The notes below the pieces were generated by a model. It was not told the origin of the DNA and made no database searches. It worked only from the letters and a program-made list of their open reading frames with translations. The translations under genes were made by a program, and so were the position numbers. DNA of 55,059 bases, counting the filler, from Dirinaria sp. TL-2023a (taxonomy: Eukaryota), in assembly GCA_051941275.1 (NCBI GenBank). It is 3 parts of 3 records of this genome, joined end to end, with 100 filler letters (N's around TTAATTAATTAA, not from the genome) between each part and the next. Parts side by side here need not be neighbours in the genome. Positions count along the whole stretch, not along the records: positions 18,449 to 36,715 come from JAVEBF010000390.1; 2 more parts are not named here. One strand, given 5' to 3'. This document shows positions 18,349 to 36,992 of the stretch, one piece after another. Position 1 is the stretch's first letter. Every line of letters starts with the position of its first letter.

Positions 18349-18448
18349 NNNNNNNNNNNNNNNNNNNNNNNNNNNNNNNNNNNNNNNNNNNNTTAATTAA
18401 TTAANNNNNNNNNNNNNNNNNNNNNNNNNNNNNNNNNNNNNNNNNNNN
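18349..18448. other. Artificial assembly spacer N44-TTAATTAATTAA-N44
   Basis: Exactly 100 nt; the central 12-mer (18393-18404) places stop codons in all six frames; same layout as the second gap. Confidence 0.97.
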
Positions 18449-33914: not shown

Positions 33915-35480
33915 TCATCTCTTATGAGCAATATGCTCTTCCCCCGCTGGTCCATGCGTCTTCACGCCCTTCATACTGTCCTCGCTCCCCTCCTCCACGG
34001 AAGCAGGCGCTTCACCCTTGACACTGCTCGCGCGACTCACGTCCGCGCTGGCAGGGCTCTCGGTCCTTAACCCGAGATTTTTACCGCCCAAGCCTGATTT
34101 CTCCTCGTCTGCACCTTTCCAATCCGCCGCAGCTGTCTCCGGGACGTTCTGCCCTTCCCGGGGCTCGGAAACCACCACCCCCTTCCCATCGCCGACCGCG
34201 CGCCATACCACTGCCAAGCGGTCTAAAGCCTTGGTGCCTTTCCGTGCGCTGCCTTTGATGCCGTCCATGGCGTCCCAGTCGATCTCGAAGACACCTTGGC
34301 TCGTCGGGTCGCCGTGGTTTTGCGGACCGTGGCCTTCGAAAAACGTATTGAACCAGACGTGCGCGACGGAGGTGACCATCGTCCATCCGTAAGTGGCTTT
34401 GTTACGCCGTTCGAAGTCGATGTTTATGTCTGAGGTGGGGAGGATGAGAGGTTTTGAGGGCCGGAATTTGACGGCGTGGGCGCCGGGAACGTGTTCATCT
34501 GAGCTGGTCTTGATTATGGGTTGAGTAGGGACGTGATTCATAGAAGGTAGCTCGGGCGTGGAGAGGGAGTTGGGAGGTTGTTTGTCGTTTGATACAGAAA
34601 GGCTCTCGGGGAGAGAGGGCTCGCTAGGAGTACTTTCGTCCGTGAGATGTCGTTCGTGTTTGTGAAATATATGGAAGGTTTTGATGGTGCGGCCTTCTTC
34701 GACATAGCCCTCCACGGCGACTCTCACTCCATCTCGGAGACCCCAGACCTGCACTTCGAGGATCTCAATCGATCGCTCGACATAGAGCTTTTGATGCTTT
34801 GACCATTCGTCGACATATCCTATCCACCGCATTTGACTTGGTATACTGACTCCAGCACCGAATCCGGATCGCATGCGTCTTTGGGTAAATCTGGCTAGCG
34901 CATCCTTGGCTGTCCAGTTCTCCTCGCTGATGAGATAGCTGCACGCTACAGTCCCACTTCTGCCTTTCCCCGCCTTGCAGTGCACTACAACCACGCGATC
35001 CTTGGGTACGTCTAAGCCTTTGAGCCAGTCACGCATGCTGGCCATAATGTTGGGTATCAACGCAAAAGGCGGAGGATGGTGATCCGGCCACGGGTAGTGT
35101 CGTATGCGACCGTACACCTCAGAGTCAGGATAACCTGTGCCCTCGGCACGGAACTCCCATATTGCCCAGTTGGCGCCGTGTTTGTAGTCCAGGAATTTGA
35201 CTAGAGCATCGGTAGGGTTACGGTATGCGCGCTGAGGATAGGTCGAAGATGGGCCAGAGGTTGCGATGACTAGGTCAGACAAAAATTTTAATATGAAACC
35301 TACGATACAGGAGACAGCATATTTGTACCCACTATTGTCTGTCACGTAACATAGATCGAGCCCGGCTTCAGGATGCCGGGAACGCGGACCTGCCACGATC
35401 TGGCGAAGTAGCGAAGCCTGAACGAGCATCAATTCAGTCTATATTACTCCATACTAATGTAGGCCTCAGGTCATTACCAT
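33915..35480 (-). CDS. TEP1: PTEN-like phosphoinositide 3-phosphatase (Tep1); the first coding exon is only the ATG
   Basis: LDLCYVTD, YRNP, WPDHHPPPF, catalytic HCKAGKGRSG, GVSIPSQ.RW..Y, C2-like HVWFNTFFE. Confidence 0.94.
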
Positions 35481-36203
35481 GATCCTGGCCACTTCCTATA
35501 ATGTATGGCAATAGTTGCTCAGAGATGAGGAGCAGGCCGGGTGACCGTGAAGGATGATGGGGCGAAAGACGAGGACAGCATCATGATTTTCTCATAACTT
35601 ATGCTGCAGCTGAGGTCGCGCCTTGACGCTATTTGCAAACCTTGAAATGAGACTGATCAGCCCTGATTCCGACCACCACTGGTGCGAAGGTACTTCAGAG
35701 TCCGTGAAGGAACCGAAAGCAAGCTTTGGGTTGGTCGTCATCTCGCATAAGCGTGGTAATGTAGGCGATTAAGCGTCTACCGCGCTTAAAAGCCTTGGCA
35801 GACTACACTTTACCTGGACCGCAGTCCTCTGGTATTGTAGTATGCTGCTGGATAGCTCACCAAAATGTACCATGAATGTTCAGTGTCCTTTTGATAGGAT
35901 TTCTAGTTTTGGAGTAATGGCCTGTTGTAGCGGTATAAGCCTTGACGATGGGTTTTTCCCTCCAAGTCCCGATCTTTCGTGGCTGCGCAGAAGCTTTCTG
36001 ACCAGGTTCCGGAGTAATAGATAGACTGGAACGGATCTCACATGAAGAAAATCACCTGCAGATCCAGATGAATTAATGGAAAATGGCAAGCTTTTCATGA
36101 GATGATTATTAGAGGCATGAGAGGCTTGAATGCTAATGAAAATTTGGTTGTGGATGTACTAATTTAAAGGTTATGTAAATAAAAGCGCCGGGTTTCTTCA
36201 AGC

Positions 36204-36354
36204 GGGTGGCATGGTCTAGTGGTAAACACTGCGGCCACCCAAAAATCCCAATGAAGCCGAAATCTGGTCCATGTCCTTATAGTACAGGGGAAAACCAGGA
36301 GGGATTTGGTAAGGAGCAGCCTGCAAAGGCGGCCCTGAGCTTTTGCCATTTTTT
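36204..36354 (+). ncRNA. Candidate Pol III-transcribed structured non-coding RNA (~150 nt), family unassigned
   Basis: TAAATAAAA at 36176-36184; A box TGGTCTAGTGG at 36212-36222; stems GGGTGGC/GCCACCC, AAATCCC/GGGATTT, CTGGT/ACCAG, GCCT-GCAA-AGGC; T6 at 36349-36354; GC-rich island in AT-rich flanks. Confidence 0.55.
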
Positions 36355-36598
36355 ACTAAATATCATTTACTTGATCTATAATAGACTTTAAGATTTCAAA
36401 AAAATGTTTGACCTCAGGCCGATTCGAATCGGTGTCCTGGCGGACTTTTGGCCCCTGATCTGCTTTTCAGCCCTGCCAAGAGCCCGGGGCGCGAACGCGT
36501 ACCTTACATATCTTCAGCAGGGGAAAGTTTCTAAGACATCGACTGGCCAAAGGCAATACCAACAACGCTGCATCATAAATTAGATCTATTCTGTTCCC

Positions 36599-36992
36599 AT
36601 GACGAAGAATCCTCCTCAATCCTCAAAGCTTCTCCCCGTGCCTCTTGCAATGAGCACCACATCGGAGCCTACCGCCTCCCCTGTACCGCTCCGCCCCTCG
36701 TCCCCCACAAAGCACNNNNNNNNNNNNNNNNNNNNNNNNNNNNNNNNNNNNNNNNNNNNTTAATTAATTAANNNNNNNNNNNNNNNNNNNNNNNNNNNNN
36801 NNNNNNNNNNNNNNNGAAGGGGGGGTTGGTGGTTGTGGCGGGCAGGGTGGTGATACAGCAGCAGCAGCAGTAGTAGCGGATGATCTCAAACGGATATCGC
36901 GCGAAACGAGAGAGTTCGTGAGGAAATACGACTGGAAAGGCGAAAGCATCGACTGGTTTCTAAATGCATTGGATCATCATCGGCTTAGATGA
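36599..36992 (+). CDS. Probable protein-coding gene interrupted by the assembly gap (only the N- and C-terminal ends visible)
   Basis: An ATG-initiated frame MTKNPP...MSTTSEPTASPVPLRPSSPTKH runs into the gap. After the gap a 58-codon frame EGGVGGCGGQGGDTAAAAVVADDLKRISRETREFVRKYDWKGESIDWFLNALDHHRLR ends at TGA 36990-36992. Confidence 0.45.
36716..36815. other. Artificial assembly spacer N44-TTAATTAATTAA-N44
   Basis: Same 100-nt layout as 18349-18448; linker at 36760-36771. Confidence 0.97.

Follow-up and report, generated by a model that had tools for sequence, protein, structure and literature searches.

We describe here a stretch of about 145 nt between two genes of the lichen-type fungus Dirinaria sp. 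TL-2023a, which, with a probability that we put at about 0.5, encodes a small structured non-coding RNA in a gene of its own, outside all known families and most likely transcribed by Pol III. Judged from its sequence and that of its relatives, it probably represents a new Pol III small RNA family. The candidate lies in a 1.16-kb divergent intergenic region between a TEP1-like gene and a downstream plus-strand gene, and it is present as a single copy in the window, that is, in the whole 55,059-nt stretch of DNA that was analysed. All features described below from the TATA-like element to the T-run are on the plus strand. Copies of the element recur in relatives, one of them in a different gene context, and this recurrence, together with retained pairing and a T-run that follows an invariant tail, fits a Pol III small RNA gene.

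The initial annotation had taken the element to stand alone and to belong to no known family, and the searches bear this out. ARAGORN found no tRNA genes in the window, and none of the Rfam 15 covariance models, which include 5S, U1-U6, U3, SRP, RNase P/MRP, snoRNAs and riboswitches, matched the window at gathering score. Over 36196-36358 there was no Rfam match at E≤10, tRNA models included; over 36000-36600 only seven weak and unrelated matches with E values of 2-10 were returned, and the metagenome contig L001, which is introduced below, likewise gave only weak, unrelated ones. The confident family match for which Rfam was to be searched was therefore not found, and a tRNA cloverleaf with D, anticodon and T arms was detected neither by ARAGORN nor by Rfam. 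SRP RNA helix 8, U5 loop 1 or an Sm site, 5S and U3 were considered and rejected, as were Y RNA, ciliate-type telomerase RNA, SECIS elements and a 5' splice site; the features that mark them are missing or are not preserved in L001, and Rfam gave nothing. In the accessible text of the literature on lichen-forming and filamentous fungi we found no description of such an RNA. Each motif listed in the initial annotation is indeed present in its place in the sequence; taken singly, most of them do not rise above chance, and only the 5' hairpin stands out.

The locus is credible because it is conserved in relatives. A contig from the RNA libraries of one lichen metatranscriptome study is an ortholog that covers 36266-36449 with six differences, five of which could be located. 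The initial annotation had held that a lack of conservation would speak against the gene; the ortholog differs at only 1 of 89 located positions in the RNA part (36266-36354), compared with 20/182 and 33/354 in the neighbouring PTEN/TEP1 exon and 22/123 at 36593-36715 (RNA part versus exon, Fisher p=0.003; 0.016 in the worst case), the ortholog and the expression-type data coming from this one study, in which the contig has a depth of about 3 and the RNA libraries may contain DNA. These counts indicate that the RNA part is under purifying selection and is more conserved than the adjoining coding exon. Contig cover is absent from 35464-36217 in three runs and also from the 5' hairpin at 36204-36236, a stretch in which divergent intergenic DNA would not align at 80%.

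Two further copies add to this conservation. A second, more divergent lichen copy from the same study aligns over 36237-36314 with seven mismatches and two indels, both of which (36258 and 36290) fall within stretches predicted to be unpaired, and it keeps the tail and a T5 run. A metagenome search matched only one contig, L001, in which the element adjoins a different gene; this search demanded 23 nt, and the 5' end of the L001 copy is cut off. Beyond the required 23 nt, L001 carries GTAAGG, spaced as in the window, a T5 run and, where hairpin B would lie, a perfect hairpin; its positions 1-75 fold with a z of -3.62 (1 of 200 shuffles as good).

What these copies have in common is the 3' module. 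It begins with the linker (G)GUAAGG(AG) at 36308-36315, whose GTAAGG is shared by the window and L001; the alignment of the second lichen copy extends as far as 36314. The linker is followed by hairpin B (36316-36333), with a GCCU-GCAA-AGGC core, whose position is kept and whose sequence is free, and by the 3' tail CCTGAGCTTTTGCCA (36334-36348), which contains CTGA at 36335-38 and does not differ between the window, L001 and the ortholog (X1 contig). The tail of the second lichen copy reads CCTGAGCTTTTGCTA; this copy and L001 both keep CCUGAGCUUUUGC, along with GUAAGG, a hairpin of free sequence and the T-run; CUGA is present in all four copies. The L001 counterpart of hairpin B is a perfect CCCCCC-UAAAAU-GGGGGG hairpin, and in the second lichen copy the hairpin B region is 10 nt shorter. 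RNAalifold, run on the window and L001, predicts seven pairs for hairpin B, and two of the 7-9 predicted pairs have changed on both sides (G-C to C-G), in a comparison of two sequences whose alignment is ambiguous upstream of GUAAGG. The sole located change of the ortholog within the RNA, C>A at 36324, turns the GCAA loop into GAAA; the GNRA loop pointed out in the initial annotation is thus retained in the close ortholog, but it is shared neither by L001, with UAAAAU, nor by the shortened second lichen copy. The linker itself can pair, its GUA with a UGC in the tail and its AGG with the closing CCU of hairpin B, and the local MFE structure of the window contains both GGUA/UGCC and AGG/CCU. 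We also observed that the tail could pair with 36181-92 (10 of 12 pairs) or with CAAAA at 36240-44.

Wider scans with the tail pattern gave no homologs. There were 28 matches among genome contigs, all in bacterial genomes or MAGs and all explained by a gene start on the other strand (ATG GCA AAA GCT CAG), and none among viral contigs; in one of the 28, GTAAGG lies upstream by coincidence. Within the window, a convergent minus-strand paralog from 36399 to about 36555 was considered and rejected as unproven. The idea had come from a mirror-image hairpin followed by CCTGAG, 8 nt, CA and T7, from CCTGAG-N5-14-T5 occurring only twice in the window, 65 nt apart, and from a GTAAGG-hairpin-CCYGRGC match at 36507-36482. 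The local alignment score of 19 compares with a window background mean of 18.4 and is reached by 1065 of 2686 segments, the score of the 3' module is 19 against a 99th percentile of 21, the fold of the putative paralog strand has a z of -0.48, and the covariance model R1, run over the window at E≤10 with filters off, found only its own training site.

One alternative explanation is that the element is a tRNA-derived, SINE-like retroposon or the decaying relic of a tRNA gene, in which case the copies elsewhere would be transposed and not orthologous. The A box is part of a tRNA-like head that has ceased to be a tRNA, the genes around L001 are unrelated, the one lichen study yielded two different copies, and tRNA-related SINEs with target-site duplications are known in Aspergillus fumigatus, as stated in the accessible text of PMC5063351. 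The candidate resembles AfuSINE2 of that filamentous ascomycete in its tRNA-related head with Pol III boxes, as far as that text describes it (PMC5063351); unlike AfuSINE2, it is single-copy in the 55-kb window, shows no target-site duplication, is under constraint above coding level and has undergone compensatory change. No direct repeat was seen to flank the element, which ends in a T-run and not in an A-rich tail, and the ortholog shows stronger conservation than the adjacent exon, which does not hold for the adjoining spacer. Neutral decay would give neither this constraint on the ortholog, nor a hairpin B whose pairing is kept through changes on both sides, nor an invariant tail of 13-15 nt common to otherwise very different copies, and we therefore regard a retroposon or relic as unlikely. 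BC1 is a lineage-specific tRNA-derived Pol III RNA. Rodent 4.5SI is another, according to the accessible text of PMC10137851. Our candidate resembles both in its tRNA-derived head, which has refolded into a hairpin, in its A and B boxes, in a TATA-like element near -30, in ending with a U-run and in its narrow taxonomic range; it differs in that it is fungal and unrelated in sequence and that its conserved part is the 3' module and not the tRNA-like head.

The T6 at 36349-36354 is likely a Pol III terminator, T5-T6 following the tail in all four copies. After it comes a less constrained spacer (36355-36398, no strand assigned), in which the ortholog has four differences in 44 nt (36363, 36376, 36389 and 36396), the same rate as the 20/182 of the TEP1 exon (Fisher p=1.0). 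It could be argued that the T-run is no terminator but, for example, an Sm-like U-rich site, and that the RNA is made by Pol II or is a piece of a longer transcript that goes on downstream. Both RNA-library contigs that cover the locus do continue for about 95-100 nt beyond the T-run, and the 9 nt past it are alike in the window (TAAATATCA) and L001 (TAATTATCA). However, four of the five located ortholog differences fall right after the T-run, at 36363-36396 (4/44 there versus 1/89 before it; p=0.04), and the ortholog's 36363 T>C breaks one pair of a possible hairpin past the T-run, with no compensating change. In the Sm consensus the U-run is followed by G; here it is followed by A, and no known Sm-class snRNA model matches. 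We judge a Pol II origin rather improbable and continue with the reading of a Pol III gene that ends at the T-run.

For such a gene, the 5' end and the region downstream of the T-run offer candidate promoter signals. A TATA-like TAAATAAAA at 36176-36184 lies about 20-28 bp upstream of the 5' hairpin, which is formed by GGGTGGC (36204-10) and GCCACCC (36234-40) with an inner AGTG/CACT (36204-36240 as a whole), has an MFE of -19.5 and a z of -2.90 (1 of 200 shuffles as good) and encloses a tRNA-type A box, TGGTCTAGTGG, at 36212-36222. An alternative pairing of GTGGCA in the 5' part with TGCCAT in the 3' part is also possible. Beyond the spacer is a conserved block (36399-36449, the latter being the contig end), in which the ortholog has no located difference in 51 nt (block versus exon, p=0.009; 0.05 if the sole unlocated difference falls here). 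It contains a palindrome, CCGATTCGAATCGG, at 36418-36431; neither the block nor the palindrome is assigned to a strand. The B-box consensus is GGTTCGANTCC, and GATTCGAATCG (36420-30) agrees with it at 9 of 11 positions, which leads us to infer that the palindrome may act as a B box. The A-box variant TGG-YYY-AGTGG occurs three times in the window on both strands together, and the B-box-like GRTTCGANYC is rarer still, with two loci, yet one of these is found 197 bp downstream of the A box, and we have counted this in favour of a Pol III layout.

This arrangement is reminiscent of SNR6, the U6 gene of Saccharomyces cerevisiae, which, in the accessible text of PMC9136082, has a TATA box at -30 and an extragenic B box that is 202 bp from box A, compared with 197 bp here, and beyond the terminator. 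At the level of sequence, the candidate has the same order of upstream TATA-like element, intragenic A box, T-run (T6) and B-like box (9/11) past the terminator, and it is by analogy with SNR6 that a promoter role can be proposed for TAAATAAAA. Unlike SNR6, the gene does not encode U6, as it has no Rfam match, its B-like box is imperfect, and L001 shows no B-box-like motif within 125 nt past its T-run. Alternatively, the block at 36399-36449 could belong to the promoter of the downstream plus-strand gene.

These same signals would serve an explanation in which the selected object is the DNA, namely an element bound by TFIIIC or Pol III that acts as a boundary or promoter between the two divergent genes, any transcript being a by-product. 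ETC sites and the tDNA insulators of yeast are parallels, the position in a 1.16-kb divergent intergenic region would be a suitable one, the B-box-like block is conserved although it is outside the RNA, and the RNA-library contigs disregard the T-run. On the other hand, DNA that binds a protein needs no hairpin that is kept by compensatory change, the 15-nt tail and T-run are kept in another gene context that has no B-like box, and the constraint spans all of 36266-36354 and not the boxes alone. A DNA element is thus quite improbable, and we return to an RNA as the product under selection.

The initial annotation had named a folding energy no better than that of shuffled controls as a result that would count against it, and this is what was found for the whole RNA, since its 155 nt have an MFE of -50.4 and a z of -0.76, with 45 of 200 shuffles folding as well. 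For 36181-36354 z is -1.03, for domain 2 alone -0.13 (84 of 200 shuffles as good) and for domain 3 alone -0.42 (66 of 200). Domain 2 is the variable arm (36243-36307), in which a 7-bp stem, AAATCCC 36243-49 with GGGATTT 36301-07, encloses an inner CTGGT/ACCAG hairpin, and it includes a kink-turn-like motif with an AAT bulge and GA at 36253-54 opposite GA at 36299-300. Over 36266-36307 the arm, with the 3' strand of this motif, is identical in the close ortholog. With a C-stem, a 3-nt bulge and GA/GA in tandem, 36243-54 and 36299-307 resemble the kink-turns bound by Snu13/L7Ae in the U4 5' stem-loop, box C/D RNAs and U3 B/C; unlike those RNAs, the element matches no family model. The pattern, searched as at least seven Watson-Crick pairs, a 3-nt bulge and GA...GA, occurs five times on the two strands of the window compared with 3.55 ± 1.7 in 20 first-order Markov shuffles, and L001 has a short plain hairpin at the equivalent place. 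The kink-turn of the initial annotation is present as a sequence motif, but it is probably not a feature of the family; as the compared sequences suggest, the arm upstream of the 3' core, which carries it here, differs among lineages.

The initial annotation had also considered an atypical snoRNA. In such a divergent, snR52-like box C/D snoRNA, made by Pol III with a leader, AUGAAGC (36251-57) would be box C and the CUGA of the tail box D. SNR52 and RPR1 of budding yeast are leader-type Pol III genes with A and B boxes in a cleaved leader, the leader of SNR52, which encodes a snoRNA, being tRNA-like. The candidate shares with these two genes a tRNA-like A box within a 5' element that precedes the body of a small RNA other than a tRNA; it differs in having its B-like box beyond the terminator. 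In favour of a box C/D RNA, the GA of AAUGA and that of CUGA can be placed opposite each other, with adjoining A-U and G-C pairs, and, as noted, CUGA is in all copies. AUGAAGC agrees with the box C consensus RUGAUGA at five of seven positions. Against this, the nucleotides beside the boxes (AUCCC and GCUUU) do not pair, only CAAAA/UUUUG doing so, set off by a 4-nt/1-nt loop, and in the perfect 7-bp stem the partner of the AAUGA side is an internal GA. Ahead of box D the RNA forms a hairpin, a point against a D guide; L001, which is cut at its 5' end, shows no UGA-type box C past the 5' strand of its stem, and none of the Rfam snoRNA models gives a match at E≤10. In addition, the Neurospora snR52 homolog CD42 is intron-encoded according to the accessible text of PMC2780460. 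With no stem beside the boxes and no free guide region, the snoRNA reading is very improbable. Units in which a tRNA-type promoter drives a second small RNA behind it are known from plant dicistronic tRNA-snoRNA genes (PMC2566860) and the tRNA-5S genes of Yarrowia lipolytica (PMC2780460), as described in the accessible text of both papers; unlike in those, the head of our candidate is no tRNA and its body is neither 5S nor a recognisable snoRNA.

Hardly credible, finally, is a coding sequence for a 61-residue peptide on the minus strand (36349-36164) or a mere chance assembly of motifs: an ATG-started ORF of 61 codons does span the candidate exactly and most single motifs are at chance level, but L001 has TTG in place of ATG and a translation that is dissimilar after the first residues, the second lichen copy has no ATG and is shifted in frame by being 10 nt shorter, the sole change of the ortholog would be Cys to Phe, and chance leaves conservation and L001 unexplained.

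Under the preferred reading of a Pol III small RNA gene, the primary transcript would be about 145-150 nt long, from about 36204 to the T6 at 36349-54. Its promoter would be split as in the yeast U6 gene, with the TATA-like element about 25 bp upstream, the A box in the 5' hairpin and the B-like palindrome about 200 bp further on, beyond the terminator. The conserved core would be the 3' module, that is, the linker GUAAGG and the tail CCUGAGCUUUUGCCA around a hairpin of free sequence and kept pairing. If GUA/UGC and AGG/CCU pair, an invariant bulge of about 7 nt (GAGCUUU) would be left just before the U-tail, and our bet is that, in a small RNP, bulge and U-tail may form either a platform for a La-type or La-related protein or a site for base pairing. 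As a further bet, the tRNA-like 5' hairpin may be mainly a promoter and possibly a processing signal. More tentatively, we propose as a possible though less probable extension that the gene is the first member with comparative support of an undescribed fungal Pol III small RNA family, defined by an invariant 3' module of GUAAGG, free-sequence hairpin, CCUGAGCUUUUGCCA and U-run on which an RNP of its own would assemble, a La-related protein being one conceivable partner, and that it is one of a set of tRNA-headed, U6-style genes which would enlarge the Pol III transcriptome of lichen-forming ascomycetes.

To our knowledge, the known fungal Pol III transcriptome is short, comprising tRNAs, 5S, U6, SRP RNA, RNase P RNA, snR52 and a few relics, and it has been defined almost wholly in yeasts. 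If our reading is correct, a conserved, structured, non-tRNA Pol III RNA in filamentous or lichen-forming ascomycetes would add a new RNP to this list, and a split promoter of the SNR6 type would be used beyond U6. The Pol III signals of such a gene could double as guide-RNA promoters for the genetics of lichen fungi.

In a window of eukaryotic, fungal character, the candidate is flanked by two divergent genes that stand 1.16 kb apart. The minus-strand neighbour encodes a PTEN/TEP1-like phosphatase (ORF 33915-35432, DSPc and Y_phosphatase domains), and the reading frame of the plus-strand gene downstream opens near 36599. Within this latter gene falls one (36716-36815) of two pairs of 44-N runs, the four runs being at 18349-18392, 18405-18448, 36716-36759 and 36772-36815, with 12 bases splitting each pair. 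The region also holds a direct repeat (36362-36379 and 36572-36589; ATCATTTACTTGATCTAT and ATCATAAATTAGATCTAT, 78%) and an inverted repeat (36181-36192 and 36333-36344; AAAAGCGCCGGG and CCCTGAGCTTTT, 10 of 12 pairs), which would pair the invariant tail of the candidate with sequence 5' of its presumed start.

All the elements named in the initial annotation were found on the plus strand where it had placed them: a TATA-like box (36176-84), a 5' hairpin (36204-40) carrying the tRNA-type A box TGGTCTAGTGG at 36212-22, a 7-bp stem (36243-49/36301-07) with an AAT bulge and GA opposite GA, a GCAA hairpin, a CTGA (36335-38) and a T6 run (36349-54). Judged one by one, they mostly do not exceed chance level. 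The whole 155-nt fold has a z of -0.76 (45 of 200 shuffles were equally good), the kink-turn arm (36243-36307) and the domain enclosing the GCAA hairpin have z values of -0.13 and -0.42, and the 5' hairpin is the sole element above background (z -2.90, equalled by 1 of 200 shuffles). Sites with the kink-turn sequence pattern (at least seven Watson-Crick pairs, a 3-nt bulge and GA...GA) number five on both window strands against 3.55 +/- 1.7 in twenty Markov shuffles; any reader of 55 kb should expect several. The A-box variant is rare (three sites on both window strands), and the B-box-like GRTTCGANYC occurs at two loci only in the window, one of them 197 bp 3' of the candidate's A box.

That the candidate lies outside known families, as had been proposed, was borne out. 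ARAGORN found no tRNA in the window, and Rfam 15 gave zero matches at gathering score over the whole window, zero at E<=10 over 36196-36358 and only seven unrelated ones (E 2-10) over 36000-36600. The literature searched held no description of such an RNA. The candidate fits none of the library families; lineage-restricted, tRNA-headed small RNAs that Pol III makes from SNR6-like promoters are, as a type of gene, already known.

The search for public runs yielded just three, all of them RNA libraries from one lichen metatranscriptome sample of one study, and their contigs of at least 80% likeness to the window were aligned to it. A close relative of the window's fungus is present in them, with TEP1 exon contigs 89-91% identical, and two runs have contigs from which a 63-nt GT..AG intron of the phosphatase gene (35270-35332, minus) has been spliced out, which confirms the intron and indicates that real RNA is present. 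The ortholog contig X1 (185 nt, depth 3.4) spans 36266-36449 with six differences. Of the five that could be located, one lies in the RNA, four (36363, 36376, 36389, 36396) in the 44 nt just past T6 and none in 36399-36449. The RNA part thus differs at 1 of 89 positions as compared with 20 of 182 in the TEP1 exon (p=0.003, rising to 0.016 should the unlocated difference also fall within the RNA), and the spacer after T6 differs at a rate like that of the exon. A more divergent copy, X2 (217 nt, depth 3.0), shows seven mismatches and two single-base indels against 36237-36314, both indels in predicted unpaired stretches; beyond 36314 it has a segment 10 nt shorter, after which the tail recurs (CCTGAGCTTTTGCTA) with a T5 run behind it. 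This contig comparison takes in neither the 5' hairpin nor the TATA-like box.

A tail-derived pattern, requiring 23 nt for a match, hit exactly one contig of a metagenome collection, the 1089-nt L001, whose neighbour gene differs from the window's and is eukaryotic-looking, with an apparent short intron and no Pfam match. The 28 matches in prokaryotic genomes were all bacterial and included no homologs, the opposite strand spelling a gene start, and viral contigs gave none. Beyond the required 23 nt, L001, which the contig end truncates on the 5' side, has GTAAGG at the same distance 5' of the tail. Where the window has its GCAA hairpin, L001 has a perfect CCCCCC-UAAAAU-GGGGGG hairpin, and where the window has a 65-nt arm, a short hairpin. 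Its first 75 nt fold far better than shuffles (z -3.62), and RNAalifold on the two 3' modules, window and L001, gave nine pairs, two with both sides changed. The first 9 nt past the T-run resemble the window's (TAATTATCA vs TAAATATCA), and at L001 76-110, right after the T-run, there are two copies of the self-complementary AUAAUUAU, spaced 14 nt apart, which may form an AU hairpin of 8 bp.

These comparisons support the 3' module as the conserved core. It consists, from 5' to 3', of (G)GUA, which can pair with the tail UGC(C); AGG, which pairs with the CCU closing a hairpin whose sequence varies freely; an invariant GAGCUUU of about 7 nt, unpaired on the 3' side; and A plus the U-run. The arm 5' of it is 65 nt with a kink-turn-like motif in the window and X2 and a short hairpin in L001. 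As the arm differs greatly in size across the sampled lineages, neither the kink-turn nor the GNRA loop counts as a family feature; both would be, at best, lineage features. The kink-turn, among the most striking features put forward initially, does not extend to the family, its pattern being near shuffle frequency (5 vs 3.55) and the arm so reduced in L001; the GNRA loop, another of these, is kept in X1, where the change at 36324 turns GCAA into GAAA, and is absent from X2 and replaced by a UAAAAU loop in L001. A SINE or its relic, suggested by the tRNA-like head and by copies sitting in other contexts, is unlikely, since the element is single-copy within the window, lacks flanking repeats, ends in a T-run and shows selection stronger than on the exon plus a compensatory change.

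A T5-T6 run directly follows the tail in all four copies, and a conserved block begins 45 nt 3' of T6 and contains the palindrome CCGATTCGAATCGG, the core of which is B-box-like and agrees at 9 of 11 positions with the B-box consensus. L001 has no B-like box within 125 nt after its T-run, and the block may just as well serve the downstream gene as a promoter element. According to PMC9136082, the yeast U6 gene SNR6 carries its TATA box at position -30 and a B box outside the gene, past the terminator and 202 bp away from box A; the candidate, with 197 bp, matches this layout at the level of sequence. From the T-runs, the differences falling after the T-run, the tRNA-type A box and the conserved B-like block, we infer that the candidate is transcribed by Pol III. 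Against Pol III, too, are the two RNA-library contigs over the candidate, both of which read on for about 100 nt beyond the T-run; their depth is only about 3, RNA libraries can contain DNA, and contigs cannot reveal RNA ends or strand. This read-through favours a Pol II RNA in which the U-run does not terminate transcription, a reading that we consider rather unlikely, as conservation falls at the T-run. That the locus acts at the DNA level, as a TFIIIC or insulator element, we hold to be improbable.

A divergent box C/D snoRNA is quite improbable. The CUGA is kept among the copies, and AAUGA could lie opposite to it, but an adjacent terminal stem is missing, a hairpin occupies the place of the D guide, box C was not seen in L001, Rfam snoRNA matches were zero and, according to PMC2780460, the Neurospora snR52 homolog is intronic. 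Pure chance, or a 61-codon ATG ORF exactly antisense to the whole candidate (36349..36164, minus), is scarcely credible, the ORF being conserved in neither L001 nor X2, which both lack the ATG, with a 10-nt difference breaking the frame and Cys to Phe as the only change in X1.

The minus strand of 36399-36449 (to about 36555) resembles a convergent Pol III-type 3' end, with the hairpin CCGAU-UCGA-AUCGG, CCUGAGGUCAAACA and T7; CCTGAG-N5-14-T5 occurs in the window only here and at the candidate, and X1 conservation resumes by 36397, two bases ahead of the T7/A7 run at 36399. A convergent paralog ending in T7 (36405-36399), suspected from this mirror-image hairpin-CCTGAG-T-run, was unsupported by alignment statistics and a covariance model. 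Also on the minus strand, 36507-36470 (GUAAGG-UA-(CGCG-UUCG-CGCG-like hairpin)-CCCCGGGCUCUUGGCA, no T-run) resembles the candidate's 3' module, matching the tail at 12 of 16 positions by eye; in local alignment it scores 19, where the 99th percentile among segments of the window is 21.

We favour, with a probability of roughly 0.52, a stand-alone new RNA gene. In such a Pol III small RNA, a tRNA-derived 5' hairpin would supply the A box and possibly a processing signal as well; X2 starts 8 nt before the position matching 36237, though a contig end proves nothing about processing. The invariant bulge and U-tail may form a functional site that either pairs with a target RNA or binds protein; on a U-tailed Pol III RNA with a 3' hairpin, La or La-related proteins are what one would first expect. 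Any named function would be a guess; the candidate stands as a credible, conserved orphan RNA.
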